NCBI GenBank assembly: GCA_964645315.1
Contig: CAZYBH010000001.1
Span: 32,405-96,404, forward strand
Source: an uncultured Candidatus Saccharibacteria bacterium
Lineage (GTDB): Bacteria; Patescibacteriota; Minisyncoccia; Phycocordibacterales; PALSA-1337
Length of the DNA stretch: 64,000 nt
Direction: 5' to 3'
Part shown: one piece after another, positions 31,619 to 58,273 of the stretch
Layout of the letters: the number at the start of each line of letters is the position of its first letter
How positions within the stretch are numbered: position 1 is the stretch's first letter
Notes under the pieces: model-generated
What the model was told of the DNA's origin: nothing
The model's input: only the letters and a program-made list of their open reading frames with translations
Databases searched by the model: none
Program-made: the position numbers and the translations under genes

Positions 31619-31716
31619 TAAAAAGTTCAAAATTATAAATGCAAAATGCAAAGTTGAATCGCATTGCGATAAAACTTTGCATTTTGTGTTTTGAACTTCT
31701 CACCTATGTCAGTTAT
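31591..31716. repeat. ~125-bp direct-repeat module, copy 1 (contains last 8 codons of rpoC plus a bidirectional-terminator-like hairpin caaaatgcaaagtt..aactttgcattttg)
   Basis: ~90% identical to 33740-33863. First 44 bp (tgaggtggtaggtgaggaggaggtgtaataaaaagttcaaaatta) identical. Confidence 0.85.
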
Positions 31717-31731
31717 CTTCAATTATTTTGT

Positions 31732-33708
31732 TTATTTTAGAATATTTACAATTCCTCTGTCTGCATCAACCTCTATCTCATCTCCATCTTTTAATACCTG
31801 AGTGGCAAATTTGGTACCTATTATGCAAGGTTTTTGCATTTCTCGAGCAATAATTGCAGCGTGACAAGTAATACCACCCTCATCAGTAACAAAGGCGAGG
31901 GCTTTCTTCATTGCTGGTACCATATCTGGAGTCGTCATGGGTGAGACAATAATTTCTCCATCGAGCATCTGTTCGACTTGATCTTTCCTTTTAACAATTC
32001 TGACAATTCCTTTAACTTTTCCTTTAAAGGCACTTTGTCCATTCAGTAAGTTATCGCCGTGATCTATTTTTTCAATCTCAAATTCGAATTCTGGAAATTT
32101 ATTAACTAAATTTTCGAATGATATTGTGCCAACAAAAATATCAGGAACTAGTGCAAAGCCGCTGTCTCGTTTCTCGAGTTGGTCTTTATCGATCTTGCCA
32201 CCCAGTTCTTCACGAGTGATATATACAACCAAATAACCTAGATCAGGATAAATATTATTGAGCGCCTTCCAGATGGCAGTATTACATTCAGCAAAGAGAA
32301 CATCCTTTTCTCTAAATTTCTTTGCTTTTTCTTTATACTCTTCTGGTACTTTTTCGTTCATTAGTGCTGCATATAAGATCACAAAATCAGATACTTCGTC
32401 ATAAACGAAATCGATAAAAGTCTGAAGGTCTGAAATTGTTGTGATCTCTCTTTTCCACCATTCCTCAATTTCTGCAAGCCTCTTGTAGTAGTTATCGTAA
32501 ATTTCATCGAAGAATTTTTTATCGGATTTAAACTTTTCCAAAATTTGATCAAGAAGCCAATGGTTTGCTTTTGTGTTCTCCCACACCTCCTCGACACCAT
32601 CCTTCATATAATAGAGATATGGTGGATTATACGGATAATCCTTAAGTCCAAGCTTCTTAATTAAACCTTCTTTGTTTGCTGCAAACCATGCTTGTTGCAT
32701 GATGATCGAGAAATTACGTGTATACGCTTTGATAAAGGTCTGTTTTTGTTGAATGAAAGTTTTATTTGAAAGTGTCGTTATGGGTCTACTTTGTACAATG
32801 TAAAATTTTCCATTTTGATTAGCCCACTCGATATCACAAGGAAAACCGTAGTGATTTTCGATTTTCATTATTATTTCTGAAAGTTCGAGAATTTGTGCTT
32901 CGTTTAGGACTTGTGATGAGGCTTTGGATTCAGGTACCTTTTTCCACTCATTGCCACCTGTATGAGATCGATGTAAAGCACGGTCTTGAGTTGAAACATT
33001 TATATCAATAATTCTACGAGGATCTTTTTCAACAACGTAACTATCAGGGGTGATTTGACCTGATACGATCGCCTCGCCGAGACCAAAACCAGCCTCGATG
33101 ATTAGTTGATTATAATCTTCAGTTACTGGGTGTACAGAGAAAGCAATTCCAGATACTTCTGATTCAACCATTTTTTGTACCACGACTGCTACAGATATCT
33201 TGGTAGTGTGAAGTCCCTTTTCAAATCGATAAAAGATGGCACGAGGAGTAAATAAGGATGCCCAGCAGTGTTTGATCTTATCAAGTAGATCCACTTCGGT
33301 GGTATTCAAGTAAGATTCAAGCTGTCCAGCCCAAGCATGTTCTTTACCATCCTCGGCTGTGGCAGATGATCGGACTGCAACAAATTCCGAATCGAGTTCT
33401 TTAAAGAATCTACTGATCTCAATGGCAATATCCTTTGGCATTTCCTTCGAAAGAATTAGATCTTTAATCTGTTCTGATGCAGACTCAACTGTATGAATTT
33501 CTTGGTGGTTAACTTTATCAAGAATTGCATCAATTTCTTGAATGAGATCAGTCTCTTGGATAAAACGTTCAAATGAGTTGGACAAAATCACAAAACCAGG
33601 AGGAACAGGAATTCCTGCTCGTGTCATTTCACCAAGTGAAGCACCCTTACCACCTGCAATAGTGGCATCATTTTTAGATAGATTTTTGAAGGCTCTGATA
33701 AGCTCCAT
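31732..33708 (-). CDS. PEP-utilising enzyme family protein (PPDK-N ATP-grasp + C-terminal phosphohistidine swivel domain); pyruvate,water dikinase-like / rifampin-phosphotransferase-like architecture
   Basis: N-terminal ATIAGGKGASLGEMTRAGIPVPPGFV (PPDK_N nucleotide-binding). C-terminal GGITCHAAIIAREMQKPCIIGT (PEP-utilizers mobile His domain). The ORF-track N-terminus (to 33822) is encoded by the repeat and is probably not translated, so the start is set at MELIRAF. Confidence 0.75.
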   Translation of the reverse strand: MELIRAFKNLSKNDATIAGGKGASLGEMTRAGIPVPPGFVILSNSFERFIQETDLIQEIDAILDKVNHQEIHTVESASEQIKDLILSKEMPKDIAIEISRFFKELDSEFVAVRSSATAEDGKEHAWAGQLESYLNTTEVDLLDKIKHCWASLFTPRAIFYRFEKGLHTTKISVAVVVQKMVESEVSGIAFSVHPVTEDYNQLIIEAGFGLGEAIVSGQITPDSYVVEKDPRRIIDINVSTQDRALHRSHTGGNEWKKVPESKASSQVLNEAQILELSEIIMKIENHYGFPCDIEWANQNGKFYIVQSRPITTLSNKTFIQQKQTFIKAYTRNFSIIMQQAWFAANKEGLIKKLGLKDYPYNPPYLYYMKDGVEEVWENTKANHWLLDQILEKFKSDKKFFDEIYDNYYKRLAEIEEWWKREITTISDLQTFIDFVYDEVSDFVILYAALMNEKVPEEYKEKAKKFREKDVLFAECNTAIWKALNNIYPDLGYLVVYITREELGGKIDKDQLEKRDSGFALVPDIFVGTISFENLVNKFPEFEFEIEKIDHGDNLLNGQSAFKGKVKGIVRIVKRKDQVEQMLDGEIIVSPMTTPDMVPAMKKALAFVTDEGGITCHAAIIAREMQKPCIIGTKFATQVLKDGDEIEVDADRGIVNILK

Positions 33709-33739
33709 ATTGTATATACTAGCATACCCGAGCTCCTTT

Positions 33740-33863
33740 TGAGGTGGTAGGTGAGGAGGAGGTGTAATAAAAAGTTCAAAATTAAAAATGCAAAATGCAA
33801 AGTGAATCGCACTGCTATTCACTTTGCATTTTGCGTTTTGAACTTTTCACTTATGTCAGTTAT
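33740..33863. repeat. ~125-bp direct-repeat module, copy 2 (includes duplicated rpoC 3'-end fragment gaggtggtaggtgaggaggaggtgtaa)
   Basis: See 31591-31716. Lies immediately upstream of the PEP-utilising gene start. Confidence 0.85.
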
Positions 33864-33935
33864 ATTCAAATAAAACAAGGTGGCCTTCGACCATTTTGTT
33901 TTACAAATATTTTCAATTGTGTACAATATGTACAT

Positions 33936-37671: not shown

Positions 37672-37793
37672 GTAGAAGGCAAAAGTTAAAAGGCAAAATT
37701 TAAGGTTTAAAGTAGAAAGTGTTCATAATAATTAATTAATTTACTCTTATAACTCATATGAGCTTGTTACTTTTGACTTTTGATTTTTAACTT

Positions 37794-40769
37794 TTGCCTT
37801 ATATTCACATGCCCAATTTCAACCAACAATACCAATCTCTAAATAAAGTTCAAAAAGAAGCTGTTGATACTATTGAGGGTCCGGTTATTGTTATTGCTGG
37901 GCCTGGTACTGGCAAAACGACTATCCTTACTCTAAGAATAGCAAATATCTTACAGAAGACTGACACTGCACCAGAAAATATTTTGGCTCTGACCTTCACT
38001 GAATCTGGTGCATATGTTATGCGCAAAAAACTTGTTGACCTTATCGGCTCATCCGCCTACAAGGTCAATATCCATACATTCCACGGTTTTGCCGAAAAGA
38101 TTATAGAGAAATACCCAGATTATTTCCCGCGAATTATCGGTTCAAAAGTCATAACCGATGCCGAACAGATTAAAATCATCGAAAATCTAATTCAATCAAA
38201 AGAAATTGAGATTTTGAGACCATTTGGCGATCCAAATTATTATGTAAGGCCTATACTATCTGAGATCAATACGCTGAAACGCGAAAACATTTCACCAAAA
38301 CAATTTCTTCAAAATGTAAAAAAAGAAATAAATGGCGCCAAAATTACAAAAAAAGGAGATAAAGAAATTTCCAAAACTGAATTGGAAAAAATTCAAAAGA
38401 GAAATGATAAAAATCTAGAATTAGCAAATATTTTTGAGAAATATGAGGCTAAATTAGCTGAGCTCAAATACTACGATTTCAATGATATGCTTCTTGAATT
38501 GATAAGAGTTTTGGAGAAAGAAGAAAATTTCAAACTTATTTTGCAAGAAAGCTATCAATATATCTTGGCCGATGAGCATCAAGATGCCAACTCTGCTCAA
38601 AATAAAATATTGGAATTACTCTCCGATTTTCATGATTCACCAAATCTATTTATTGTCGGTGATGATAAGCAGGCTATATATCGTTTCCAAGGAGCATCTT
38701 TGGACAATTTTCTTTATTTCAAGGATAAATATAAGGATGCAAAAGTTATAGAATTGACTCACAACTATCGATCACAACAGGGTATTCTCGACGCTTCTCA
38801 TAGCCTCATTTCCAATAATCCGGCAATTCCTGGAAGGGAAAGGGCGAAGTTGATTTCACTTCAGATCGGCAGTAGGCCGATAAAAGTCTATGAATTTGCA
38901 AAACAGGAAGATGAGTTTCAGCACATTATTTTTGAAATAAAAGACTTCATAAATGATGGTTATAGGATTGAAGAATTGGCGATCTTGTATAGGACAAATA
39001 GTGAGGCTGATCAAATAGCAAAAGCTCTAAAAAAAGCGGGAATTTCTTATAGAATTGAATCTGACTACAATATTCTCGATGAAATTGATCCGTCAAAATT
39101 GATTATTATTTCAAGAGCGATAAACGATCTTTCAAACGATGAGAACCTAGGCAAAACATTGCTTTTGAATGAATTTGACTGTGATCCGGGTACAGTTTCT
39201 GCTTTGTTCAATATTTCAAAAAAAGATAAATTACCGCTCTTTTCACTAATCAATAATTCATCAAATAGCACTAAGACTAAAAATATAGACAAAAAGGATT
39301 TGGAACAAGTCAAAGCTGTATATGATAAATTGGCTAATTGGTCAAAAATTGCTCAATATGAAAGTTATCCAAATCTATTACAAAAAATAATAGAGGAAAC
39401 AAACATTTTATCCAATATTATAAAAGATGAAAACTCCTTACCACGTTTGTCTGCCTTGGAAGATTTCTTTTCTCAAGTGACAAAAATTTCCAAAGCCAAA
39501 AAGACTTTTTTGCTCAAGGATTTTATCGAATATGTAGATATTGTCGCTGATCATGGTCTTGTAACCAAAAGAGATTATACAGATCATATTGAAGGGGTCA
39601 GATTGATGACCGCTCATCGTTCCAAGGGTTTGGAATTTGATCATGTTTTTATTATAAATTGTTATGATGGAAATTGGGGAAATAGAAGCAAAAGAAATCT
39701 ATTCAACATTCCAATTATCGAAAAGGCCAGAGATTCTGGGAATATAGAAGATGAAAGGAGGCTGTTTTATGTCGCCCTTACAAGAGCTAGAGAGTCCGTT
39801 CATATTTCATTTTCTAGATTGCTAGGTGATAAAGAAGCGGTGATAAGTCAGTTTTTGACCGAGATCGATGAGGTCAATATGCATTATACTGAGCCGGTCT
39901 TGATCAAGTCCGATACAAGCGATTTGGATATATCTAAACCCAAAATAAAAAATGATTTATCAATTTTAAATCCAAGTTTTGTCAAATCAAAGTTCATTGG
40001 CCAACCACTTTCGGTTACTCATCTAAACAATTATCTTGAATGTCCTTGGCAATATTTCTTTGTAAACCTGATTAGGATCCCTCAAGTAGAGACCAAGCAT
40101 CAGGTCTACGGTACGGCAGTCCATACTGCTTTGAGAGCCTTTTTTGAGGCTTACAAGGATGATAGGGATATACCCAAAAGAGAATTGTTAGAAATATTTG
40201 AGTATCATATAAATAATTCTTCAATGGATAGTGATGATAAGGTCGAATCAATTAAAAAAGGTAAAAATGCTTTGTCAGGATATTATGATGAATATGCAGG
40301 TACTTGGAATAAAAATTTATTTACCGAATATGGTATTAAGATTCCAAATTTTGAAATTGATAAAAAAAATAGTATTACACTTACTGGCAACTTGGATAAG
40401 ATCGAATTGATAGACAAAAATCATGTAGCCGTTATTGATTACAAAACCGCAAAGCCAAAATCAAGAAATGAAATAGAGGGCAAAACAAAAGATGCTGATG
40501 GTAATTATAAGAGGCAATTGGTATTTTATAAATTGCTTCTTGATCTTGAAGATAAATACAAAATGAGTAGTGGTACGATTGATTTTATTGAACCCAATGA
40601 TCGTGGTTTGTATAAGAAGGAGCAGTTTATTATAGAGCAGGATGAGGTTAATACTCTAAAAGAAATTATTAAGAAAGTAGCAAATGAGATTATTAATCTA
40701 GATTTTAGTGATAAATATTGCGATAACAAAGATTGTAGATATTGTAATTTGGCGAAGGTTATAAAGTGA
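37794..40769 (+). CDS. UvrD/PcrA-type superfamily-1 helicase fused to C-terminal PD-(D/E)XK (RecB/Cas4-like) nuclease domain with Cys cluster
   Basis: Walker A AGPGTGKTTIL, UvrD motifs (YILADEHQDANSAQ, LFIVGDDKQAIYRFQGA, TAHRSKGLEFD). C-terminal ..GNLDKIELID..VIDYKTAKP (D..ExK-like) plus C..C..C (CDNKDCRYC) consistent with an Fe-S RecB-family nuclease. Confidence 0.75.
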   Translation: MPYIHMPNFNQQYQSLNKVQKEAVDTIEGPVIVIAGPGTGKTTILTLRIANILQKTDTAPENILALTFTESGAYVMRKKLVDLIGSSAYKVNIHTFHGFAEKIIEKYPDYFPRIIGSKVITDAEQIKIIENLIQSKEIEILRPFGDPNYYVRPILSEINTLKRENISPKQFLQNVKKEINGAKITKKGDKEISKTELEKIQKRNDKNLELANIFEKYEAKLAELKYYDFNDMLLELIRVLEKEENFKLILQESYQYILADEHQDANSAQNKILELLSDFHDSPNLFIVGDDKQAIYRFQGASLDNFLYFKDKYKDAKVIELTHNYRSQQGILDASHSLISNNPAIPGRERAKLISLQIGSRPIKVYEFAKQEDEFQHIIFEIKDFINDGYRIEELAILYRTNSEADQIAKALKKAGISYRIESDYNILDEIDPSKLIIISRAINDLSNDENLGKTLLLNEFDCDPGTVSALFNISKKDKLPLFSLINNSSNSTKTKNIDKKDLEQVKAVYDKLANWSKIAQYESYPNLLQKIIEETNILSNIIKDENSLPRLSALEDFFSQVTKISKAKKTFLLKDFIEYVDIVADHGLVTKRDYTDHIEGVRLMTAHRSKGLEFDHVFIINCYDGNWGNRSKRNLFNIPIIEKARDSGNIEDERRLFYVALTRARESVHISFSRLLGDKEAVISQFLTEIDEVNMHYTEPVLIKSDTSDLDISKPKIKNDLSILNPSFVKSKFIGQPLSVTHLNNYLECPWQYFFVNLIRIPQVETKHQVYGTAVHTALRAFFEAYKDDRDIPKRELLEIFEYHINNSSMDSDDKVESIKKGKNALSGYYDEYAGTWNKNLFTEYGIKIPNFEIDKKNSITLTGNLDKIELIDKNHVAVIDYKTAKPKSRNEIEGKTKDADGNYKRQLVFYKLLLDLEDKYKMSSGTIDFIEPNDRGLYKKEQFIIEQDEVNTLKEIIKKVANEIINLDFSDKYCDNKDCRYCNLAKVIK

Positions 40770-40836
40770 AAAATGCAAAGTGCAAAGTGCAAAGTTTAAT
40801 CACATCGTGTAAACTTTGCACTTTGCATTTTTCACT
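40764..40836. terminator. long perfect hairpin (gtgaaaaatgcaaagtgcaaagtgcaaagttta / taaactttgcactttgcatttttcac), bidirectional-terminator-like; same family as the hairpins at 31640 and 33800
   Basis: 26-nt arms between convergent genes (helicase stop 40769, dsbA-like stop 40855). A-run and T-run on both sides. Confidence 0.7.
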
Positions 40837-40854
40837 TTTAACTTTATTTTGCAC

Positions 40855-43557: not shown

Positions 43558-43878
43558 ACGACCATTGTATCAGAATTATTTTTTTAGTGAAATACAAAAA
43601 AGGCCGCGATGCACAACTCACACGTAGTGGTCATACATCCGGCCCGGTGAGTTGCGAGACATTACCAGCATCGATACCTCGAGGTTCGCTATGATGGCTA
43701 GTCATGGGATGGGTGTCTAATCCACCTTTTCGCAACTGATTTGAGTGTAGCATAACATCATTATTGATGCAAGGCATCATCTACCCACTCTACACCTTGT
43801 AGCCACGATTTTGGCAAGCAGAATATGGCTCAACAGAGCAACATTTGTGAGGTTTAACCTCGCAAAATGCAAAAACAC

Positions 43879-43906
43879 TTGACAAAGTTGATGGATATGC
43901 TATACT
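43879..43906 (+). promoter_or_regulatory. sigma-70-type promoter TTGACA-N16-TATACT (module copy A), preceded by palindrome tgtgaggtttaacctcgcaa
   Basis: -35 at 43879-43884, -10 at 43901-43906. ~80-bp module shared with 53881-53960. Confidence 0.6.
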
Positions 43907-43913
43907 ATTTACA

Positions 43914-44247
43914 GTAAGAACATTGAATACGACTGAATCGCACGCACCATAATGGGTTTGAAATTTGAACCTAATATGGTGCGCGCGACGACAGCTGAAT
44001 CTGAGGGTCAGGGGGAGGTACGCCCCAACCAAGCCTAATAGGCTAAACTCATGGTTCAGTGTACCTGGAGGAAACTTCGGGGATCAGTCGCTAGCGGCCA
44101 GCCCTTAAATAGGGCGCTTCATCTCCGATGTCACAGGAGAACGAGCATTGTGCTCGTAAGCAGAAAAACGTCCGAAAGGACGAAACATAGATGCTAGTGA
44201 CGGCATCAGGGCGCGGAGGATGAATCTTCCGCGCCCCTTTCTTTTTG
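43914..44247 (+). ncRNA. candidate structured RNA A (~330 nt, GC-rich, unidentified; ends in intrinsic terminator)
   Basis: GC-rich block in an AT-rich genome. No ORF with an RBS. Starts just after the consensus promoter. Ends with hairpin gggcgcggagga/tcttccgcgccc plus a T-run (44208-44247). Identity (RNase P/SRP/tmRNA/other) could not be established by eye. Confidence 0.45.
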
Positions 44248-44278
44248 TAAATAAATTTCAATTATTTCTCTGTAGAAA

Positions 44279-44315
44279 CTGTGTACAAAAACCCCGAGGT
44301 CTCGCCTCGGGAGAG
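44279..44315. repeat. third, diverged copy of the 52-bp repeat family (ctgtgtacaaaaaccccgaggtctcgcctcgggaga)
   Basis: Similar to 53829-53880 and 54388-54439. Contains hairpin cccgagg-tctcg-cctcggg. Confidence 0.7.
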
Positions 44316-44336
44316 TGGCTATGTTAGGATAACATT

Positions 44337-45314
44337 ATGAAACGGATAATAATAAAAGAGGGTCCAGTAGTTTTCCTTCGAAATGTTATTGTTATGGAAT
44401 TATTGGCTACGCTACTTTTTATTGGCGCATCTTATTTGGCAAATTACGAGCAATTGTTCCTAGGTTTCCATTTCAATAAATACGTGACCTATGGAAATTT
44501 CATGGTGACCTTATTTTCCGCTTTTCAGATTATTTATATCCTGGCTCTATTTTTTGATTGGTATTTGAAATATTTTGAAATTAGAGAAAAAGAAATAGTA
44601 AAACACACCGGCCTTATTTTCAAAAGTAAGAGATCTGTTTCCTTGCTCCATATTGTAGCAGTAGAGACAAGTCAAAGTCCCATAGATAGGATATTGAAGC
44701 ATGCTACTTTGACCTTGGAACATGATAATGGTCGCATAACTAAGATTCGCAATGTAGCTGGTTATGAAGAATATGTAGAAATGATAAAGCAGACTATAGA
44801 CAATTCTCTCAAAAAACCTATACATTCAAGAAGTTTACAGATGTTTCTCAAAGAAGGTGAAGGATTATTTTTGGAATTTAAGCAGACATTGCGTTATGAC
44901 ATCAGGAAAAAGACAATTAGCAAGGATGTAGAGAGGGCGGTGATCAAGACTATTGCCGGATTTATGAATGCTGATGGAGGTACGCTTATCATTGGTGTCG
45001 ATGATGATGGCAAGGTCGTCGGTCTCAAAAATGACTTTGCTACTCTAGCCAAAGCCAATCGAGACGGTTTCGAAAATCATCTTATCAATCTTGTAAAGAC
45101 AATGCTTGGAGTAAAGTTTGCAAACTATATCCATATTAGATTTGAATATTTCAATGGCAACGAAGCCTGTATTGTTGCAGTAGATCCGAGTCATAAACCT
45201 GCCTATATTCCAAATTCCGATGGCAAAGAAGAATTCTTTGTCCGCATGGGTAATTCTACCCAACCATTCTCAATGAGTGAGGCGGAAGAGTATATAAAGA
45301 CGAGGTGGAAATAG
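44337..45314 (+). CDS. membrane protein with N-terminal bPH (YdbS/YdbT-like) domain and C-terminal AlbA_2/Schlafen-like (divergent AAA, putative DNA-binding) domain
   Basis: Two TM helices. DWYLKYFEIREKEIVKHTGLIFKSKRSVSLLHIV (bacterial PH). EFKQTLRYD..VIKTIAGFMNADGGTLIIGVDDDGKVVGL (AlbA_2 signature). Confidence 0.6.
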   Translation: MKRIIIKEGPVVFLRNVIVMELLATLLFIGASYLANYEQLFLGFHFNKYVTYGNFMVTLFSAFQIIYILALFFDWYLKYFEIREKEIVKHTGLIFKSKRSVSLLHIVAVETSQSPIDRILKHATLTLEHDNGRITKIRNVAGYEEYVEMIKQTIDNSLKKPIHSRSLQMFLKEGEGLFLEFKQTLRYDIRKKTISKDVERAVIKTIAGFMNADGGTLIIGVDDDGKVVGLKNDFATLAKANRDGFENHLINLVKTMLGVKFANYIHIRFEYFNGNEACIVAVDPSHKPAYIPNSDGKEEFFVRMGNSTQPFSMSEAEEYIKTRWK

Positions 45315-45403
45315 GTTGCAATCTTAAAAATTAAATCTTAAATCTAAAATCTTGGCATGCATCTCAAATCTGTAGCTTGTTAGACTCAACTTTGAACTTC
45401 TCA

Positions 45404-47224
<1,821 letters not shown>

Positions 47225-47289
47225 TTGATATAAAAAGGAGCCTTTGGCTCGGTCCTTAAGTAAAGCATAAAAATAGGCGTGAAGTCAAG

Positions 47290-47750
47290 AAGAGGATATC
47301 GAAGGATGTCGGAGGATGTTGCACATCCTTTGTGAGGTTAAACCTCACAAAATAAACCGAGCTCCCAGAGGGAGCTCGTGTATGGACGAATCAGAGATCG
47401 TTCTGTCCGTCTATCCGCGGGAGGCGTGGTGGATGTTGGACGTTCCCGATGTTGAAGACGGCCGACAATCGAGACCAAACCTGTCATTGGGCCGTCTGGC
47501 CCGATTGGGTTTGGAATGGTTGGTCGGAGCCTTTTTGGGTCGTTCCATTCCAGGATCCCATCCGCGATGTTGTCGATCACTCATGGTGTTTTCCAATAAA
47601 TTCCAACCCCTCACTGGAGCTGGTTCGAGTAAATATACTACATCATTTATAAAAAAATGCCAATGGGGATTATTACCTCAGGGGATGTACCCCTCTATTT
47701 CATCGGGGCAAGACACATCCTTTGGCGAAAAAGTTTTATCTTTTCTTTAT
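47290..47750. other. GC-rich ~0.45-kb islet of uncertain nature (possible structured RNA or foreign DNA remnant)
   Basis: Marked GC excess. Contains palindrome tgtgaggttaaacctcaca, hairpin gagctccc-aga-gggagctc, and motifs shared with 20151 (ggaggttgcacatcc) and 62885 (gatgtaccc.tctatttcat.gggg). ORF-track ORFs here on both strands overlap each other and lack RBSs. Confidence 0.5.
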
Positions 47751-47791
47751 GGAAAATTCATAAGAATTTCATTTGGTTTTGATAGAGTACA

Positions 47792-48931
47792 GTGATGAGT
47801 GAAATAAAAAAAGAAAAATGTGAATTTCCAAATAATCCACCAAGTGCAGTTTCGGCAATCGATCAGCTACTGGCTTTTTGTGTAGACATCAGGGCTTCCG
47901 ATATTCATTGCGATCCCGAAGAATTGTCGATCAAAGTTCGGGCTCGCGTTGACGGCATAATGCAATTGATCGGCTATTTACCAAAAAAACTTTATCAAGA
48001 GTTCATTACAAGACTCAAGATCCTTTCAGGTACAAGGACTGATCTTCATCTAGTACCCCAAGACGGCCGATGGAGAGCTTCGGTTGATGGGTATTACTAC
48101 AATATTCGCATTTCATTTATGCCCACTTATTACGGAGAAAATGCAGTACTTAGGATATTACCGGCTCGAGCAGATGATATAGAGACTTTCGTTGGGCTTG
48201 GTTTTAGTGCGAATCATCAAGATCTCATCAGAACTTCTCTTAGTTACAAAAACGGCCTAATCCTTGTCACTGGTCCGACCGGATCGGGCAAGACTACGAC
48301 ACTTAGATCGTGTCTTGGTCTCATTGCTCGCGAACCTATTTCCATCATCACTCTTGAGGATCCGGTCGAATACGAAATCCAAAATGTCAGACAAATCCAC
48401 ATCCGGCACGATCTTGGTGTAAGTTTCGCTTCAGCTTTGAGATCGTGCTTGAGACAAGATCCCGATGTCATTATGGTGGGAGAGATTCGAGACTCTGAGA
48501 CTGCCAAGATTGCGATCCACACAGCTCTCACTGGTCATTTGGTCTTATCTACATTACATACAAATTCTGCTCTTGAGACAATACCTAGACTTATCGATAT
48601 GGGTGTCGATGACTATCTTCTATCATCCACTTTGCGCTTGATTATATCCCAAAGGTTAATTCGTAAAGTTTGCATAAGATGTCACTTCAAGACTTGTGAA
48701 CAGTGCAATTATACTGGTTACAAGGGTAGAGCTGTCATCGCGGAAGTGCTAGAAGTCGATCAAGTTTTGGCCCATTTGATCTACAAAAAAGCCGATCTGG
48801 AACAAATAAAAAAGCACATATTTTCTCGTGGTTTTATCCCAATATACGAAGATGCATGCGAAAAAGTCGATTGGGGCATGACCACAAAACAAGAAGTAAT
48901 GAATATCCTAAATAGCCATGACAAAAAATAA
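47792..48931 (+). CDS. type II secretion / type IV pilus assembly ATPase (GspE/PilB family)
   Basis: Walker A VTGPTGSGKTTTL, Asp box, Walker B IMVGEIRD, His box, tetracysteine CIRCHFKTCEQCNYTGYKG. Confidence 0.85.
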   Translation: MMSEIKKEKCEFPNNPPSAVSAIDQLLAFCVDIRASDIHCDPEELSIKVRARVDGIMQLIGYLPKKLYQEFITRLKILSGTRTDLHLVPQDGRWRASVDGYYYNIRISFMPTYYGENAVLRILPARADDIETFVGLGFSANHQDLIRTSLSYKNGLILVTGPTGSGKTTTLRSCLGLIAREPISIITLEDPVEYEIQNVRQIHIRHDLGVSFASALRSCLRQDPDVIMVGEIRDSETAKIAIHTALTGHLVLSTLHTNSALETIPRLIDMGVDDYLLSSTLRLIISQRLIRKVCIRCHFKTCEQCNYTGYKGRAVIAEVLEVDQVLAHLIYKKADLEQIKKHIFSRGFIPIYEDACEKVDWGMTTKQEVMNILNSHDKK

Positions 48932-49967
48932 TTTTAAAATAAAAAAGTCTGATCTCATATTGTTTTTTAATCGTTTGGAAATGTATATTTCATCTGGTTT
49001 TGCTATCGACAAGGCTCTTGCGATAATCGCTTCAAGTTCGGGCAAAAGACTCAAGAGACCGCTCGATCTTATTGGTAATGATCTCGGTAGTGGCGAGCAT
49101 TTGTCCAAATCTCTATTACGAAGATTTTCTATAAATTCCAGTTTATTCAATTTGATTGAGAATGGCGAAAATTCTGGCAGGCTAAAGGAATCACTGATAT
49201 TTTGTTCAGAATTATTGGAGAAGGAGAGCAATCTCCAAAAAAAGTGCCTTGGTGCTCTTACATATCCACTTGTCATCGGTATATTTTCTTTCGGTCTGAC
49301 ACTATTTCTCATTCAAGGTGTTATGAAACAGATTATACCCTTGCTCCGAAGCCTCAAGATTGCTTTGCCTATTAGTACAAAAATACTTATTTTCTTCTCA
49401 TCTTTTATAACAAAATATTATTTATTGATAATTATATTTTTGATTATCATAGTGCCACTTTCTCATTTTATTTATAAGAAATATCAAATCACAAAGTACT
49501 TATTTCAAAAGTTTCTTATCAAGATTCCTATTTTGGGCAAGACAATAATTCAATATCAAGCTTTTATAGTGACAAAATCCATAGGCTCACTCCTTAGGGC
49601 AGGACTCGGTATAGATTCTGCTTATAGAGATGTCTTTTTTCATTGTCGCCTCATTCCATTCCGCGATCATTTCATGGCATATTCAAGACAGATCACTGAA
49701 GGCTTGCCAGTCTATATTCCTTTTTCCAAATTTCATTTAGCCATATACATACCAGCTCTTATCGAAGCTGGCGAGCTTTCTGGTCAATTGGCAAATTCCT
49801 TTATCAAATGTTCTGACTTGATAGAGAAGGATATGGATAGTTTTATCAAAAGATTTACCGTACTTATCGAACCATTGATGATGATTTTGGTCGGTAGCAT
49901 TGTCGGCTTTGTCGCTGTTTCGATTATGTTACCGATTTATAGCATTTCAAATACCCTCCAAAAATGA
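48918..49967 (+). CDS. type II secretion system protein F / PilC-like inner-membrane platform protein
   Basis: Two GspF-type repeats with 3 TM segments. Overlaps the GspE stop (operon). Confidence 0.7.
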   Translation: MTKNNFKIKKSDLILFFNRLEMYISSGFAIDKALAIIASSSGKRLKRPLDLIGNDLGSGEHLSKSLLRRFSINSSLFNLIENGENSGRLKESLIFCSELLEKESNLQKKCLGALTYPLVIGIFSFGLTLFLIQGVMKQIIPLLRSLKIALPISTKILIFFSSFITKYYLLIIIFLIIIVPLSHFIYKKYQITKYLFQKFLIKIPILGKTIIQYQAFIVTKSIGSLLRAGLGIDSAYRDVFFHCRLIPFRDHFMAYSRQITEGLPVYIPFSKFHLAIYIPALIEAGELSGQLANSFIKCSDLIEKDMDSFIKRFTVLIEPLMMILVGSIVGFVAVSIMLPIYSISNTLQK

Positions 49968-51367
49968 AAAATTCAAATCGTCCAAATTTACGAGGAAGTC
50001 TGCTTTTAGATTTTATGATGGCTTTTTCTATTGGTCTATTATTTACAAATTTTATATACACCATAAATAGTCAGACAAGATTATTATTAAATAAAGCCGA
50101 GGATAGCATTGATTTTATTTCCAACTATCAAGTTTTGAAGGGTCAAGTTTCTTCACAAAATTTGCAATCTATATCCTCATCATCATTTATCATGGCCAAA
50201 AAAAGCTATGGCAATTATTTTATCCAAAATTACTTTTTGAGTACCAGTTCAGATCATTTATTGAATGAAATATTTACAAATATTCAAGTCGAGAAGTCAG
50301 ATGGTAAGGATTTATGCAATCCACTCATCCATGAAGAATATCCAATTGGATCCTATGAAGATTACAAAGATCTAACAAGTAACGGTACAAGTACTTATGG
50401 TATATCGATTAGGAATATAAATATACCTATTTCTGTCGACAATATTCCCACAGATTTCCTGGTTCGCAGTGGTATTGCCTATATTAGTCTCGATTCAAAC
50501 ATCCAAAATGATCCAGATATAATTGTGATCGATATAAGAGGTGAGCCAAAGATATTGTCTAGCCTCAATACTGGCCCTGGTATATCGTCTCTGGCTTTTG
50601 TTGGAGATCGGATATTTGCTTCGGTTTTAAGTACTACAAATCAGGTCCAGATTATTGATTTGGACAATAATCGCAAATTAAGCTTAGTAACAAAATACAA
50701 ATTACCATTACCATATGCGACGGCGACACCACCGCTTGGTAGCAGTATTAGTTTCAACTATCCATACATTTATCTAGGCACAAATAAATGGGACGGTGAT
50801 GAATTTAATATTCTGTCTCTGACTGGTAATTCTCTTACAAGAAATTCCGGTTTTGAAGTGGGAAGTAAGGTCAATTTTATAGATTACGATGCCAAAAGTA
50901 TATATTTATCTGGCTCAAACCAAAATCAATTATTGAGATTGGACTATGAAGGGAGTTCAATTTTGCAAAGTGAGAGATTTGGTCCGAGCGGTTACGAAAG
51001 ACAAGAGGGCAAAGTCACGCATATATTTGAAGATTCATTATATTTTGGCCGCACCAGTGGCGGTTTTGATTTGCCAAATGATCATGAAATATTCTCATTT
51101 CCTCATACTTTAGCCGATACAAAATTTGACAATCCATACTCGATAAATATCACCGGCGGTATATATGGCATTGTCGCCGACAAAAATAGCCTCTTTGCAA
51201 TAACGAGAATTCCCAATTCAGAATTATTAGTATTTGATAGAAATCTCCATACAATCCAGAACGTCTCATTGCCAATAAGTCCAAAAGCATTGCATTGTGA
51301 TATGGACAAGCTTTATGTCCTTGCAAATAATGCTCCATTTATCAGTGAAATAACAATAAAAAAATGA
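49964..51367 (+). CDS. hypothetical pilus-associated protein with degenerate prepilin-like N-terminus (RGSLLLD + hydrophobic helix) and large beta-rich domain
   Basis: Stop/start overlap with gspF. N-terminal TM after a G|SLLLD-like motif. Rest has no recognised family (PilY1-like or minor-pilin-like is speculative). Confidence 0.5.
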   Translation: MKNSNRPNLRGSLLLDFMMAFSIGLLFTNFIYTINSQTRLLLNKAEDSIDFISNYQVLKGQVSSQNLQSISSSSFIMAKKSYGNYFIQNYFLSTSSDHLLNEIFTNIQVEKSDGKDLCNPLIHEEYPIGSYEDYKDLTSNGTSTYGISIRNINIPISVDNIPTDFLVRSGIAYISLDSNIQNDPDIIVIDIRGEPKILSSLNTGPGISSLAFVGDRIFASVLSTTNQVQIIDLDNNRKLSLVTKYKLPLPYATATPPLGSSISFNYPYIYLGTNKWDGDEFNILSLTGNSLTRNSGFEVGSKVNFIDYDAKSIYLSGSNQNQLLRLDYEGSSILQSERFGPSGYERQEGKVTHIFEDSLYFGRTSGGFDLPNDHEIFSFPHTLADTKFDNPYSINITGGIYGIVADKNSLFAITRIPNSELLVFDRNLHTIQNVSLPISPKALHCDMDKLYVLANNAPFISEITIKK

Positions 51368-51513
51368 ATAAAAAAGGCTTTACTCTTATTGAGACTATCA
51401 TGTACATATTTTTAACATCTTTTTTGCTTTCAAATCTTATAAATTTTGGCTTCTATATTTACAGAGATAATAATAAAAATAATGAACAAATTAATAACCT
51501 TTTTTCAAAATAG
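51364..51513 (+). CDS. unannotated mini pseudopilin-like ORF (49 aa) MNKKGFTLIETIMYIFLTSFLLSNLINFGF...
   Basis: Not in the ORF track (short). Perfect prepilin motif KKG|FTLIE plus a hydrophobic helix. ATGA overlap with the upstream gene stop. Confidence 0.5.
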   Translation: MNKKGFTLIETIMYIFLTSFLLSNLINFGFYIYRDNNKNNEQINNLFSK

Positions 51514-51865
51514 AAAAAGTGATAATAGGGGTTTCGTCGCTTTTACTGCTAGTTTTATTTTGGTCTTTTCTTTATTTTATTTCAGCTTGATTTTATTAGA
51601 AAATAGCTTTAGCGCCTATGATTTTGCAAAAAGAAATGAGTATCGTATTCAGGGCAATTTCAATATAAAATTTTGCCAGAATTATGCAAAACTGATGATC
51701 TCAAAAGATTACTATCTTTCTGGTTATTTCAGTTTGTCATTCGGTTGCTCCCTATTTTTTATTAGAAATGGAAATGCTGTCCAAGTACAAGCGAGTACAA
51801 CTATTGGAGATATTGTATTTAGAGATACAAAACTTTATGAGATAGGCAATTATGAAATAAAATAG
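51482..51865 (+). CDS. small membrane-anchored hypothetical protein (pseudopilin-like N-terminus NRGFVAFTASFILVF)
   Basis: ORF-track 51446..51865. Hydrophobic N-terminal helix after a basic stretch. Last gene of the putative pilus/secretion operon. Confidence 0.4.
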   Translation: MNKLITFFQNRKSDNRGFVAFTASFILVFSLFYFSLILLENSFSAYDFAKRNEYRIQGNFNIKFCQNYAKLMISKDYYLSGYFSLSFGCSLFFIRNGNAVQVQASTTIGDIVFRDTKLYEIGNYEIK

Positions 51866-52807
51866 CTATTTTGCTTTGAGGTGAGAATAGATATCCTCTA
51901 TCGCTTTGACGGCATCGCCTACTGCTATGTTATTTTGGTGATAGAGTCCGTCAGTGCAGTCTCCTGCTGACCAAATGCCTTTTGTATGAGTTTGCTGAGT
52001 CTTTGCATCTACCGGTATGCGGTTGAATTCATCGAGTTTGATTATCTCTTTTGCAAAATCGGTATTTGGCAATGAACCAATCTCTACGAATATTCCAGAG
52101 ACGGGTAAATCGATATCTTTGTTTGCTTTGGTGTCTCGATATACTATCGATGAGACGAATTTGTCACCTTTGACTTCGACAGGTACGGCGTTTTTTATTA
52201 TTTTGACATTTTGATTGCGACTGACCGCCTCGATAGTACCAGGGTCTGCGCGGAAATTTTCGCTACGATTCAATATGTAGACATTTTTGCAATATGCCAT
52301 GAGTTGGGCAGCGCTATCGAAGGCAGCATTTCCACCTCCGATCACAGCTACATCCATGTCAGAGTATAGCGGGCCGTCGCAGGTAGCACAGTAGGTAAGA
52401 CCCTTATGTTCGAAAATATCTGCTCCTGGGACATCGAGCTTGCGCCTATGACTACCAGAGACGATGAGCACGGTACGAGCTTCGTACCAACCCTTGTCCG
52501 TCTGGATTGAATAGCTATTTGATGGTAAATGTGGGGAAGAGGATTTTTTGATATTGATGCATTTTTCGCCTTCCCGTATATCGATCACACCGTCTGCATA
52601 GGTCTTCACGTGATTTTCGAGGCTTTTTGATAGGTCTGATCCGGATATAGCTACTGTACCGATCCAGTTTTCGATCTTTTCGGAGACAGCACTCTGACCA
52701 TACCAGTCTTTTGTAATAAAAACGGTCTTGAGCCTTTTCCTTGCTGCATAAACGCCAGCTCCTGCACCAGCTGGTCCACCTCCGATTATTGCTAGATCGT
52801 ATAACAT
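51866..52807 (-). CDS. trxB: thioredoxin-disulfide reductase
   Basis: FAD site IIGGGPAGAGAG, redox-active CATCDG, NADPH site GGGNAAFD. Confidence 0.9.
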   Translation of the reverse strand: MLYDLAIIGGGPAGAGAGVYAARKRLKTVFITKDWYGQSAVSEKIENWIGTVAISGSDLSKSLENHVKTYADGVIDIREGEKCINIKKSSSPHLPSNSYSIQTDKGWYEARTVLIVSGSHRRKLDVPGADIFEHKGLTYCATCDGPLYSDMDVAVIGGGNAAFDSAAQLMAYCKNVYILNRSENFRADPGTIEAVSRNQNVKIIKNAVPVEVKGDKFVSSIVYRDTKANKDIDLPVSGIFVEIGSLPNTDFAKEIIKLDEFNRIPVDAKTQQTHTKGIWSAGDCTDGLYHQNNIAVGDAVKAIEDIYSHLKAK

Positions 52808-52832
52808 GGGACTATTTTATCATAAATAATTA

Positions 52833-53807
52833 TTAATGGCAGACTCTTTGAAATTCGGTGCGATCTTGGATAGAAGGGGAGGTGACCGAGCTTTCATTGT
52901 AGGCATTCATGATAGAATCCTTGCCTTCAACATGGTCTAGGCCTAGAGCATGACCAAATTCATGGGCGAGTACTCTAGTCAGTTTATTGTTATCTTTGAA
53001 TTCATAAATATTGATATTTTGACCTTTATTATCTCTGACATATTCGCCCTCTTGGAATTCTGGTCCTGTACTTTGGCTGACATTATTGAAGGTACTGATC
53101 TTACCATTTATATCTTTGTTTAATGAATTCAATTCTTTAACTTTTGCATTTAATTGATCAACGAGATTATTTAGTTCGCGGTTTGCAGTATTTATATCGG
53201 TAGCTTTTTGATTTAGAGCTAGGCGCTCTCTTTCTATTTGATTGAAGCTATCTTTGCTAATTGATTTTTGTGCATTTAGCTTAGCTAAATCTTTTTCATA
53301 AGTAGATTTGCTTGCTTCATATTGGCTGACTAGATTATTTATACTTATTTTTTTGTTTTCATATTCCTTCTTTAGAGAATTGAATTGCAATTCAAGGTCA
53401 TTGTAATTAGATTTGCTATTTTCTATATTATTATTTATTTGATTTAGTTTGTCTGTCGTTCTTTGTCTTTCATCGTAGATCAAGTTAACCGCCAATTTAT
53501 AATTTGAAAAATCGGACAAGTTTTTTGCTTTTTGTTCATTGTAGATAAGGACATCATTTCCCTGGATTTTATTCCAAATAGAAGCGGAACTTTCCAATTC
53601 TTTTATGAAGCTCTCTTTTGTCTTGTCGAATCGTTCATCGAAATTGTTTACATAATAATAGATCGGTTTTGAGCAAGGTTTGTCTATACCAATATATGTC
53701 AGTATGTCTTCATAGACTGGCACATAGCGATCTTTATTGAAAATGACTATAGAAGCGGATGTAATCAGTAGAATTGATACCAAACTGTACTGCAGAGGTT
53801 TGCTCAT
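52833..53807 (-). CDS. membrane-anchored coiled-coil protein with C-terminal matrixin-like zinc metalloprotease domain
   Basis: HEFGHALGLDHVEGKDSIM (HExxHxxGxxH + Met-turn). N-terminal TM. Long N/Q/K-rich coiled coil. Confidence 0.7.
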   Translation of the reverse strand: MSKPLQYSLVSILLITSASIVIFNKDRYVPVYEDILTYIGIDKPCSKPIYYYVNNFDERFDKTKESFIKELESSASIWNKIQGNDVLIYNEQKAKNLSDFSNYKLAVNLIYDERQRTTDKLNQINNNIENSKSNYNDLELQFNSLKKEYENKKISINNLVSQYEASKSTYEKDLAKLNAQKSISKDSFNQIERERLALNQKATDINTANRELNNLVDQLNAKVKELNSLNKDINGKISTFNNVSQSTGPEFQEGEYVRDNKGQNINIYEFKDNNKLTRVLAHEFGHALGLDHVEGKDSIMNAYNESSVTSPSIQDRTEFQRVCH

Positions 53808-53828
53808 TAACTAATATTGTACATTATT

Positions 53829-53880
53829 ATTTCTGTGCAAAAACTGTGTACAAAACTCCTGAGGCCTCGCCTCGGGAAAT
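53829..53880. repeat. perfect 52-bp direct repeat, copy 1 (atttctgtgcaaaaactgtgtacaaaactcctgaggcctcgcctcgggaaat)
   Basis: Identical to 54388-54439. Contains hairpin cctgagg-cctcg-cctcggg. Confidence 0.9.
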
Positions 53881-53932
53881 GGCTCAACAGAGCCGTCGTT
53901 GCGAGGTTTAACCTAGCAAAATGTAAAAACAC

Positions 53933-53960
53933 TTGACAAATTTGATGAGTATGCTATACT
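53933..53960 (+). promoter_or_regulatory. sigma-70-type promoter TTGACA-N16-TATACT (module copy B), preceded by palindrome-like gcgaggtttaacctagcaa
   Basis: -35 at 53933-53938, -10 at 53955-53960. Module 53881-53960 ~85% identical to 43826-43906. Confidence 0.6.
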
Positions 53961-53966
53961 TATCAC

Positions 53967-54378
53967 GGATAGTTGAGATGAGCAGACCGCAGTACTCATC
54001 TCACTAGAGCGACAAGAGTTCGGTTGTGAGGGTCTATCACAATCGAAAACACGCAGTCTCGAGAGGACTGATTAGGTCTCAGTGACCTGTTGTTAAAATC
54101 TTGTTGCTCCGGAAATCGTCTCTCGGTATGGGTGCTTATTGGAAGGTAAACACTCATATAATTGATAGCACTTCCACCGCCGACTCGACAGGGCGGTGCA
54201 GGATCAGGTAATCTCGGCGAGACCGGGGTAGGGCAGAAGCCCATTACCGTTTGATGCCACTTGAGGGACGTCCTCTTGGCTAGGTAAATTCCAGATCCGC
54301 GATTCTCAGGGGTGGCTTGCGATGAGTCCGCAACCCACACAGTAATATATACCCCCGGAACGGTCCGGGGGTTTTTTC
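53967..54378 (+). ncRNA. candidate structured RNA B (~410 nt, GC-rich, unidentified; ends in intrinsic terminator cccccgga-acgg-tccggggg + T6)
   Basis: GC-rich block. No RBS-preceded ORF. Consensus promoter upstream. Strong terminator at 54352-54378. Whole unit bracketed by 52-bp direct repeats. Confidence 0.45.
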
Positions 54379-54387
54379 TTTATCCAA

Positions 54388-54439
54388 ATTTCTGTGCAAA
54401 AACTGTGTACAAAACTCCTGAGGCCTCGCCTCGGGAAAT
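54388..54439. repeat. perfect 52-bp direct repeat, copy 2
   Basis: Identical to 53829-53880. Abuts the ftsZ stop codon. Confidence 0.9.
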
Positions 54440-55641
54440 TATTTCAACCTAGACCTTCGAAGGAATGCTGGAATAGCACCCCAATCGTCATCATCATCGA
54501 CTTTTTCTTCTACTTTCTTTATTTCGACTTTTGGACTTATGATACTAGCTGGATCTTTTTTGGGTTCAACTGGAGCATTGAAGATTTTGCCTTTTTCTTG
54601 GACCCTTTTCATGATATTTGAAACCGAAGATTCGGTCGGAGCGGGGTTGATGTTTTGTTGGACTGGACTAGGCTTGCTTACGGCGCTCTCGGGGAAGCCG
54701 GTAGCAATAACGGTGATCTTGATCTCATTCTTCTTGAGCTTATCGTCTCTCACAGTACCGAAGATGATTTTTGCTTCTGGATCGATTGACTCCGTAATAA
54801 CTTTTGCTGCGTCTTGGATCTCGAACATGGTCAAATCTTCGCCACCAGCGATGGAGAACAGAACACCTTTTGCTCCGATAATAGAGACATCAAGCAAAGG
54901 TGAATTGATCGCTGCTTTGGCTGCTTCAATCGCACGATTTTCGCCACTGGCCTTGCCTATGCCCATAAGTGCTGAGCCAGCATTCTCCATGATGGTGCGG
55001 ATGTCGGCGAAGTCTATATTGATAAGACCAGGGGTCGTGATGAGGTCTGATATGCCTTCGACCGCTTGTCTCAAGATCTCATCGCACATACCGAAGGCGT
55101 TTTTGACTGTGGTCTCTTTGCCGATAGCAGAAAGAAGGCGATCGTTTGGAATGACGATGATAGCGTCTACTTCTTTGCGAAGATCTTCGAGAGCCGCTTC
55201 GGCAATGCGTGTCCTTTGTCTACCTTCGAAATAAAATGGCTTGGTCACAACTGCAACGGTAAGACAACCAAGCTCTTTTGCTGTCCTTGCTACTACTGGA
55301 CTTGCTCCGGTTCCTGTACCACCGCCGACTCCGCAGGTGACGAAGACCATGTCTGCACCCTTTACTACTTCTTGGATCTCTTCTTTTGTCTCTTCTGCAG
55401 CTCTACGACCGAGATCTGGGTTCATGCCTGTACCTAGACCGCGAGTTAGATTTTTGCCGATATTGATGCGCTTCTTGGTCAAGGAGCGGTGAAGATCTTG
55501 GGCATCAGTATTGATTGCGACGAAATCGACTCCTCTAACTTTTGAGGAAATCATGTGGTTGATTGCATTTTGTCCTGAACCACCAACTCCGAGTACTTTT
55601 ATTCGAGCAAATGCTTCGATATCTGGCGTTAAGTTTGGCAT
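54439..55641 (-). CDS. ftsZ: cell division GTPase FtsZ
   Basis: [10 protein letters not shown], tubulin signature [16 protein letters not shown]7 loop NIDFADI. Start trimmed to MPNLTPD. Confidence 0.95.
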
Positions 55642-55782
55642 GAATTTTATTCTTATTATCTTTATTGAAAAACGGTTTTCCTGTGAACATAAGCTCAAGG
55701 TATTCCTTGGTTGTATATTACCATAGGACTTTGTATATACAAGCAATTTACTAGTATATATAAAATATGTTGTATTTTTTTG

Positions 55783-56352: not shown

Positions 56353-56353
56353 G

Positions 56354-57535: not shown

Positions 57536-57554
57536 GTTGGAGTGAAAGAGTGAT

Positions 57555-57935: not shown

Positions 57936-57965
57936 ACAAATAAATAAGTGGCTCGGCCACTTAGT

Positions 57966-58211: not shown

Positions 58212-58273
58212 TGGTAAAGAATAGCATAACTATTGATTATGTGCAAACCAAAAGATCTGAAGAGACCCGTTTC

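Follow-up and report, generated by a model that had tools for sequence, protein, structure and literature searches.

RNA A, a predicted structured transcript of about 335 nt, is very probably a stand-alone non-coding RNA gene. It lies between hisS and a bPH_2/AlbA_2 gene in the 64,000-nucleotide stretch of contig CAZYBH010000001.1 analysed here (the window; all coordinates are positions in this 64-kb stretch, and related loci are denoted by L and a number). The window is core chromosome, with rpoB/C, dnaG, rpoD, hisS, typA/bipA, type IV pilus genes and ftsA/ftsZ, and comparisons of HisRS and FtsZ grouped it with Patescibacteria/Paceibacteria, the named relatives being Paceibacterota and Taylorbacteria. 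The explanation that we favour as a whole, to which we give somewhat better than an even chance, is that RNA A is an accessory RNA gene with tertiary structure, that it belongs to a family of cassettes, that these cassettes move, and that the RNA functions in trans. A paralogous cassette of the window, containing RNA B, lies between ftsZ and an M10 peptidase gene.

The start of RNA A was placed about 7 nt past the -10 element of its promoter, and its 3' end was set by the terminator. The promoter is part of a module that is present twice in the window: 43825-43906 and 53879-53960, the latter in front of RNA B, formed an ungapped alignment of 82 nt with 87% identity (E = 8e-24 in a BLAST comparison inside the window), in line with the ~85% that an earlier note on this DNA had estimated for 43826-43906 and 53881-53960. 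Between the module of RNA A and the one in front of RNA B in L096, identity was 91%. The shared elements named in that note, including the palindrome and the TATACT -10, were all located in both copies: GGCTCAACAGAGC, the palindrome TTGYGAGGTTTAACCTNGCAA (43845-43865 and 53899-53919), AAAAACACTTGACAAA and TATGCTATACT. Both promoters have the form TTGACA-16-TATACT with an extended -10 TG, and each scored 11/12; they were the two strongest TG-carrying + strand promoter matches in the window. In both modules the palindrome lies about 58 nt upstream of the inferred RNA start.

The G+C content of RNA A was 0.51, in comparison with 0.387 for the whole window. The minimum free energy (MFE) of the + strand was -150.1 kcal/mol, with z = -10.06 relative to shuffled sequence (mean -99.0 ± 5.1), while that of the reverse complement was -128.3 kcal/mol, with z = -6.9; because the fold is stronger on the + than on the - strand, transcription of the + strand is favoured. 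The same architecture emerged from the MFE and the centroid structure. About 17 unpaired nt at the 5' end are followed by a multi-branch domain closed by the helix CGACUGA/UCAGUCG (43930-43936 with 44084-44090), in whose long hairpin CCUAAU (43970-43975) lies opposite AAUGG (43951-43955), an arrangement that resembles the 11-nt GAAA-tetraloop receptor. Downstream of this domain there are five more hairpins, one of them with a second GAAA loop, and then the terminator. The loops GAUGUCACA (44127-44135) and AGUGAC (44196-44201) contain the complementary strings GUCAC (44130) and GUGAC (44197), which may form a loop-loop contact.

No stop-to-stop frame longer than 68 codons was present in the RNA A region, the longest stop-free frames being 48-68 codons. 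Six-frame fragments of RNA A had no match in Pfam at E <= 1, and there were no gene calls on RNA A in a Logan contig with an identical locus. The description of this segment in the earlier note, as a GC-rich sequence of ~330 nt without open reading frames (ORFs) that begins with a long imperfect hairpin, and ends in a terminator at 44208-44247, was borne out with small changes in length and coordinates. RNA A has the features of a stand-alone structured RNA gene, namely a promoter, a terminator, no conserved frame, its folding z and strand asymmetry. The features of both loci and of the related loci compared are collected in Table 1.

Table 1. Positions, strands and properties of the features described (window positions unless a related locus is named; a dot marks a feature without strand)
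Feature	Position or locus	Strand	Description
RNA A, structured non-coding transcript (predicted)	43913-44247	+	~335 nt
RNA A 5' domain	43930-44090	+	multi-branch loop: long hairpin, branched arm, GAAA-capped hairpin (loop 44071-44074)
Long imperfect hairpin of RNA A	43943-43983	+	
RNA A 3' hairpin series	44122-44207	+	includes second GAAA tetraloop (44174-44177)
Intrinsic terminator of RNA A	44209-44246	+	stem 44209-44236, 12 pairs (9 G-C), loop TGAA, tail CTTTCTTTTT
Promoter/operator module, copy A	43825-43906	+	small hairpin, palindrome, -35, extended -10
Small hairpin of module A	43828-43840		GGCTCAACAGAGC
21-bp palindrome of module A, putative transcription-factor site	43845-43865	.	TTGTGAGGTTTAACCTCGCAA; centre ~58 nt upstream of inferred RNA A start
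-35 of module A	43879-43884	+	TTGACA
Extended -10 of module A	43898-43906	+	TGCTATACT
Right flank common to cassettes A and B	44264-44315	.	23-bp cassette end ATTTCTCTGTAGAAACTGTGTAC + ~29-bp hairpin
A-prime, structured segment, status uncertain	43597-43737	-	~140 nt; z = -4.13; hairpin + U6, 40 nt before hisS start codon
hisS-bPH_2/AlbA_2 spacer	window		779 bp
hisS-bPH_2/AlbA_2 spacer	L006		65 bp
hisS-bPH_2/AlbA_2 spacer	L004		81 bp
hisS-bPH_2/AlbA_2 spacer	L003		ABC-transporter ATPase gene
hisS-bPH_2/AlbA_2 spacer	L007		910-aa gene
Paralogous RNA B cassette	53829-54439	+	flank 53829-53880, module B 53879-53960, RNA B 53967-54380, flank 54388-54439
RNA B terminator	54351-54372	+	
ftsZ-M10 site, RNA B	window; L096, L012, L097 (FtsZ 95%)		occupied
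ftsZ-M10 site, empty	L102, L103 (in-clade, FtsZ 92%)		78 bp
ftsZ-M10 site	L014 (FtsZ 91%)		homologous promoter TGCTTGACAAAT..TTGATG..ATATGCT..GGATAG, then unrelated ~440-nt RNA, z = -5.0
ftsZ-M10 site	L098		promoter, then another unrelated ~540-nt RNA, z = -4.6
ftsZ-M10 site, empty	L099 (FtsZ protein same as L098)		27 bp
ftsZ-M10 site	L101 (FtsZ protein same as L098)		yet another downstream sequence
ftsZ-M10 site	L013 (FtsZ 83%)		~330-nt structured RNA, other strand, z = -3.8
ftsZ-M10 site	L016		HigB/HigA-like small reading frames
Identity to L012, ftsZ, all nucleotides	window		88.8%
Identity to L012, ftsZ, four-fold degenerate sites	window		67%
Identity to L012, RNA B, whole	window		92.7%
Identity to L012, RNA B, first 146 nt	window		97-99%
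Third palindrome site	47330-47350		between RNA C terminator and bipA promoter
Fourth palindrome site	6672-6692	.	overlaps -35/spacer of SLT_2-domain gene promoter
RNA C, separate structured RNA family	about 47352-47632	-	between pilB (T2SSE) and bipA; own promoter + terminator
RNA C copies	L096 18638-18985; L098 18535-18877; L006 6152-6460; L003 4741-5047		

The window and 15 related loci were searched with Rfam 15 at gathering thresholds, which gave tRNA matches only, that of the window being a tRNA-Ser at 20008-20092. At E <= 10, a cut-off of about 11-14 bits when RNA A or RNA B was searched alone, RNA A, RNA B (alone or with flanks), a further RNA of the window (RNA C) and the L098 RNA gave chance-level matches only, and so the Rfam check proposed in the earlier note assigned no family to RNA A or RNA B. 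In the window, no transfer-messenger RNA (tmRNA) or split tRNA was found by ARAGORN, whether its settings were normal or relaxed. Homologues of RNA A were not found by blastn in phage genomes, by three pattern scans in viral contigs, or by pattern scans in metagenomes of the JGI (two metagenome scans were run). In 104 related loci, blastn retrieved no homologues beyond near-identical copies, and a covariance model of the 5' domain recovered only RNA A itself from 1.36 Mb of related loci. Comparison by eye with helix 8 of the signal recognition particle (SRP) RNA, the T-box and conserved regions of RNase P RNA gave short resemblances only, and these candidates were rejected. A scan for RNA-mRNA duplexes as targets returned long-loop artefacts that could not be interpreted and was dropped.

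The near-identical copies come from a second strain (L093-L095, HisRS 99%), which carries the same inserted block at about 99% identity. L093 differed from the window at three positions in or near RNA A, one of them 2 nt upstream of the inferred start and the other two inside the RNA at unpaired positions. Three independent assemblies of this strain break or have a gap inside RNA A (~43977-44105), as an N-gap in L093 and as contig ends in L094 and L095; the cause may be the low coverage of about 6x or a middle part of the RNA that varies between strains.

Relatives whose HisRS is about 80% identical have kept the gene order around hisS. The spacer of the window matched the short spacers of these relatives only at its two ends, over ~30 bp next to hisS and ~20 bp next to AlbA_2, and the inserted block between them (~43590-44315, ~725 bp) consists of the segment A-prime, the promoter module, RNA A and a 52-nt flank. 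This flank was 83% identical to 53829-53880 and 54388-54439, the repeats around RNA B, and scored as a - strand terminator; the third, diverged repeat copy noted before at 44279-44315 is real and slightly longer. A-prime was missing from L004 and L006, and its weak -35 (TTGCAT) was mutated in L093; it could be a leader or attenuator of hisS or a small RNA. In a separate observation at this locus, L003 (7938-8041, 9845-10000) and L004 (1432-1512) had identical HisRS and differed by the ABC-transporter ATPase gene in the hisS-AlbA_2 spacer, the ATPase insert of L003 being flanked by ~26-bp direct repeats AAAACTACTACAATATTTGGATTTTG.

The position of RNA A in front of the bPH_2/AlbA_2 gene raises the alternative that it is a cis-acting leader, a riboswitch or attenuator, with regulated termination at 44209-44246. 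The gene has the same orientation, its ATG (44337) is 90 nt past the terminator, and no good + strand promoter was detected at 44250-44337, so the gene may depend on read-through. However, relatives have the same gene after spacers of 27-104 bp without any leader, and RNA B, the sister of RNA A, is convergent with ftsZ, meeting its 3' end, with no gene lying downstream of the RNA. The terminator, 12 bp long and rich in G+C, has no evident competing pairing and looks constitutive, there was no Rfam riboswitch match, and 335 nt would be large for an aptamer and expression platform. We regard a leader as unlikely.

The ftsZ-M10 locus was compared in the same way. In most of 80 FtsZ-anchored relatives the next gene begins less than 100 bp after ftsZ. 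The in-clade empty sites of L102 and L103 consist, in order, of the M10 start codon, 20 nt, the palindrome TTTGCGAGGTTTAACCTAGCAAA, tagc, the hairpin AAAAACCCCGAGGCCTCGCCTCGGGGAAAAA and the ftsZ stop codon. In L096, L012 and L097, the palindrome is followed by the hairpin in diverged form and then by the GGCTCAACAGAGCC module, which holds another palindrome and the promoter; after these come RNA B with its terminator, ATTTCTCCGCAAAAACTGTGTAC, the hairpin and ftsZ. Because the hairpin is single in the empty site, the B cassette is an insertion of about 560 bp flanked by duplicated ftsZ terminator hairpins. The sequences 53829-53880 and 54388-54439 are identical 52-nt direct repeats bracketing RNA B. 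Judged against the empty site, the 52-bp repeat is to be read as a 23-bp cassette end (ATTTCTCNGNANAAACTGTGTAC) joined to the ~29-bp ftsZ terminator hairpin and not as a transposon end; in the window its upstream copy has by the same comparison been homogenised to a perfect 52 bp, with loss of the first palindrome. The direct repeats flanking the insert were 23-29 bp in L096, and the insert of L098 was bracketed by a 47-nt direct repeat, 98% identical, which is the promoter itself.

The bodies carried at this site were unrelated to each other. No k-mers beyond chance were common to the bodies of RNA A, RNA B, the L014, L098 and L013 RNAs and RNA C, and these six could not be aligned to each other. 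Mutual local alignments of A, B, C and A-prime gave shuffle-level scores, and RNA B could not be aligned to the L014 RNA. The possibility that the L014 RNA is a fast-evolving orthologue of RNA B was rejected; the 5' domain of RNA B is 97-99% conserved across species, and the L014 RNA is for this reason read as a replacement. The statement of the earlier note that two different RNAs share one regulatory cassette and one flanking repeat, and its suggestion of a co-mobilised family, are supported by these comparisons: A and B aligned at shuffle level and have the flank in common, the A block was missing in relatives, RNA B was missing at the 78-bp sites, and other bodies were present behind a homologous promoter.

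Where RNA B is shared, comparison of its identity with that of ftsZ (Table 1) indicates clear purifying selection on the RNA. Its covariation was minimal, with three sequences only. A 127-codon frame on the - strand of RNA B was split by frameshifts in L096 and L012, and its 114-aa ORF had no homologue among 5.8 billion proteins; with the null result in Pfam, the reading as a pseudogene was rejected.

The palindrome pattern gave 8 strand matches at four window sites, against 0.00 expected (100 shuffles). Outside the window, its core was found only in loci of the same clade, namely L096 (four times), L098, L102 and L103, one of these in-clade sites being the empty ftsZ-M10 site, ahead of the M10 gene. 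Because promoters of protein genes have it too (at 6672, at 47330 and in the empty ftsZ-M10 site), the palindrome is not specific to the RNAs and looks like a clade-wide operator-like motif; the module accordingly looks as if it carries the operator of a clade-specific regulator, through which the RNA loci would be co-regulated. The SLT_2-domain gene behind the fourth site is apparently leaderless, its TATAAT (6698-6703) being only 6 nt before the ATG (6710), and the palindrome there lies over the -35 and spacer.

From these data, we consider it reasonably likely that one Paceibacteria clade has a socket for RNA cassettes, in which a left flank (the promoter module) and a right flank (the 23-bp end and terminator hairpin) surround unrelated bodies. 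At RNA A, a near-consensus sigma-70 promoter, with the palindromic operator centred near -58, would transcribe ~335 nt to a strong intrinsic terminator. Cassettes would enter and leave intergenic terminator regions through recombination on homologies of 23-52 bp. The most likely route is that a cassette circularises by recombination between its own flanking repeats and is integrated by a single crossover on the shared module or hairpin, which would leave, as direct repeats, a sequence of which empty sites have one copy; exchange of bodies by a double crossover on both flanks is an alternative route. DNA may be taken up via the type IV pilus, whose genes the window encodes. The ftsZ-M10 site would be the primary locus and the hisS-AlbA_2 copy, RNA A, a secondary one that brought the ftsZ terminator hairpin along; because the hairpin after RNA A is native to the ftsZ locus, the A cassette probably came from an ftsZ-type cassette.

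The fullest form of this proposal remains tentative, and we would not bet on all of it: a portable socket of the clade swaps unrelated ornate RNAs as RNA-only cassettes, via repeat-mediated excision and single-crossover integration after DNA uptake, and RNA A was captured at a second locus. If the socket reading is true, turnover of the ornate-RNA repertoire might, speculatively, resemble that of a defence island. A role in trans as a folded scaffold or protein-binding RNA, varying between strains, is doubtful for RNA A at present. The function of the RNA, which could for example concern interaction with phage or host, with expression together with the palindrome regulon, is the weakest step of the mechanism.

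Several points weigh against the explanation as a whole. No repeat matches the left end of the A block, and the hisS locus yielded neither a circular intermediate or recombinase nor an empty site from within the clade. The repeats that flank the inserts could also stem from local duplication or gene conversion instead of integration. Transcription of RNA A is deduced from its promoter and terminator sequence. Only copies of RNA A that are 99-100% identical were retrieved, which offer no covariation or selection evidence of its own. The window and an L096-type genome share a recently exchanged block of 96-99% identity from hisS to the middle of RNA C, the rest being 78-89% identical, and because of this shared block the differences in L093 say little about selection on RNA A.

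The same turnover could mean that the RNA bodies have no function, being foreign DNA that recombination hot spots took up and that is transcribed from a strong promoter duplicated by chance. Their G+C content looks foreign (0.46-0.51 vs 0.39), they had no homologues in anything searched, and the hot spots also hold toxin-antitoxin-like and other cargo genes. However, a z of -10 with tetraloop and receptor features is unexpected for random or coding fragments, every body has its own well-formed terminator, RNA B shows purifying selection, and no protein homology was found in any frame. We consider this explanation improbable, about as much so as the leader.

An RNA that itself drives mobility, such as an IscB/TnpB omega RNA, an IS110 bridge RNA, an ORF-less group I or II intron or a self-mobilising ribozyme, is more improbable still. 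RNA A is an insertion that some genomes have and others lack, its structured body contains GNRA-receptor motifs as are typically found in introns, its first ~17 nt are unpaired, and group I introns are common in Patescibacteria (PMC13011429). Omega RNAs (HEARO) and IS110 bridge RNAs are likewise structured RNAs, of 150-400 nt, tied to moving DNA, and in RNA A, as in these, an unpaired 5' segment is followed by a scaffold and a terminator. However, the window ORFs covered by Pfam scans or by the annotation of matching contigs included no transposase, recombinase, reverse transcriptase, IscB, TnpB or Cas-like gene and so no partner gene in the annotated parts; these ORFs, the neighbouring ones and most others of the window, were housekeeping and pilus genes only. 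There was no Rfam match to HEARO, group I (RF00028) or group II models, and intron-aware ARAGORN found no tRNA halves at RNA A. RNA A has no host gene or exon context; it begins ~7 nt past the -10 and ends at its terminator. The moved unit includes the untranscribed promoter, which would place mobility at the DNA level and not at that of the RNA, and the bodies at the shared site are mutually unrelated.

There is hardly any likelihood that RNA A or RNA B is one of the housekeeping RNAs, namely RNase P RNA (RF00010/RF00011), tmRNA, SRP RNA or 6S RNA, in a highly diverged form: with 335 and 415 nt the two would have the right size for RNase P RNA and tmRNA, but no match to any of the four was found even at about 11-14 bits with the RNA searched alone, ARAGORN found no tmRNA and at 75% thresholds gave scattered permuted-type noise only, sites of the same clade are empty (L102, L103 and L099, the last even with an FtsZ protein shared with the RNA-bearing L098), L014 and L098 carry unrelated RNAs, and the different bodies have no core motif in common. 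RNase P RNAs of candidate phyla radiation (CPR) genomes, from the same phylum and of a similar size range, have been missed by standard models at default Rfam thresholds, and the RF00010 threshold had to be lowered to 5 bits in 10 of 35 circular CPR genomes (Lui et al., bioRxiv 10.1101/2020.03.05.979740). In contrast to these, RNA A and RNA B had no sub-threshold RF00010 match, are accessory and not universal, and occur as alleles without a common core. When RNA A was examined for the expected features of RNase P RNA (CR-I GAGGAAAGUCC, CR-V ACAGAA and the P4 pseudoknot), GGAGGAAACUUCGGGG was found to fold as a local GAAA hairpin without a 3' partner strand. At the ftsZ-M10 site of the related loci compared, the RNA was not a single copy in every genome, as is expected of RNase P RNA.

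The cassette RNAs were also compared with other known systems. Ornate-type RNAs often sit in variable or mobile contexts. Like the large bacterial RNAs ROOL, GOLLD, OLE and the raiA motif, RNA A is several hundred nt long, much richer in G+C than its genome and patchy in distribution, with an elaborate predicted fold, GNRA-type motifs and a predicted transcription unit of its own. However, it had no covariance-model match to any of these and is known from a single species-level lineage, and a cassette system that shares a promoter is not described for them. As in integron cassettes and Campbell-type integration, discrete cassettes lie at a fixed site with empty and occupied alleles, and the direct repeats are single-copy when the site is empty. 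In contrast to integrons, there is no attC/attI architecture or array, the repeats of 23-52 bp are nothing more than the sequence of the site, a terminator hairpin or the promoter, and each cassette has its own promoter and an RNA as cargo. The repeat was a 23-bp end with a simple 8-9-bp terminator hairpin, and no integrase was present among the annotated window ORFs. RNA A can be likened to 6S RNA and CsrB/RsmZ as a stand-alone, terminator-bounded and, by prediction, abundant trans-acting RNA with several GGA-containing hairpins, but it lacks a 6S-like central bubble, a repeated loop motif and an Rfam match.

Hardly any non-coding RNA has been characterised in candidate-phyla bacteria, whose genomes are tiny, yet this genome devotes its strongest promoters to folded RNAs of 300-550 nt that are wholly different between close relatives and conserved where shared. 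If the cassette model is true, there would be accessory genes with a complex RNA as their product and a simple recombination route for their exchange. The cassettes would also supply structural work with new folded RNAs that are naturally compact, and would offer a way into the conflicts between strains of uncultured episymbionts or their interaction with hosts.

Apart from the cassettes, the clade conserves RNA C, a structured RNA family of about 280-340 nt; five homologues were found, and its 5' hairpin and terminator covaried. The middle section of the window copy was different from and shorter than those of L096 and L098, and RNA C had no Rfam match. Identity to L096, a sister genome, was mosaic around this RNA, with 96.4% left of ~47433 (45011-47433) and 78-85% to the right (47731-62144), and the region around hisS was 99% identical in L093. 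The breakpoint inside RNA C suggests a recent homologous exchange of the hisS-bipA block.

An insertion signature with direct repeats of local sequence, the same as that of the RNA cassettes, was also observed at a protein gene. A 696-aa PPDK_N/PEP-utilizer gene (31732-33822, - strand) lies directly after rpoC, between direct repeats of ~135 bp (31591-31725 and 33740-33872) that include the 3' end of rpoC, and L006 passes straight from rpoC to dnaG.

Further repeated elements were noted in the window. A second palindromic motif, GCATAWGTCWGACWTATGC, was present at seven sites (767, 5045, 5111, 19082, 21555, 21577 and 36379) against 0.04 expected; all are intergenic or in promoters, for example upstream of rpoD (36379), and the motif is probably the operator of another regulator. 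Repeats of the AAAATGCAAAATGCAAAGT type, with inverted partners ACTTTGCATTTTG, were found at 27906-27932, 31629-31699, 33778-33846, 37681-37794 and 40763-40845, after rpoB, rpoC, the PPDK-like gene, rpoD and a UvrD-like gene, and look like a shared family of terminators or intergenic elements. Finally, a 93-nt unit was present in two copies that were 86% identical (62137-62229 and 63135-63227); in each, a hairpin RNA of ~55 nt ending in GGCGGAGGTTTTTT comes after a TG-carrying TTGACT-17-TACAAT promoter, and the two are a candidate small-RNA pair.

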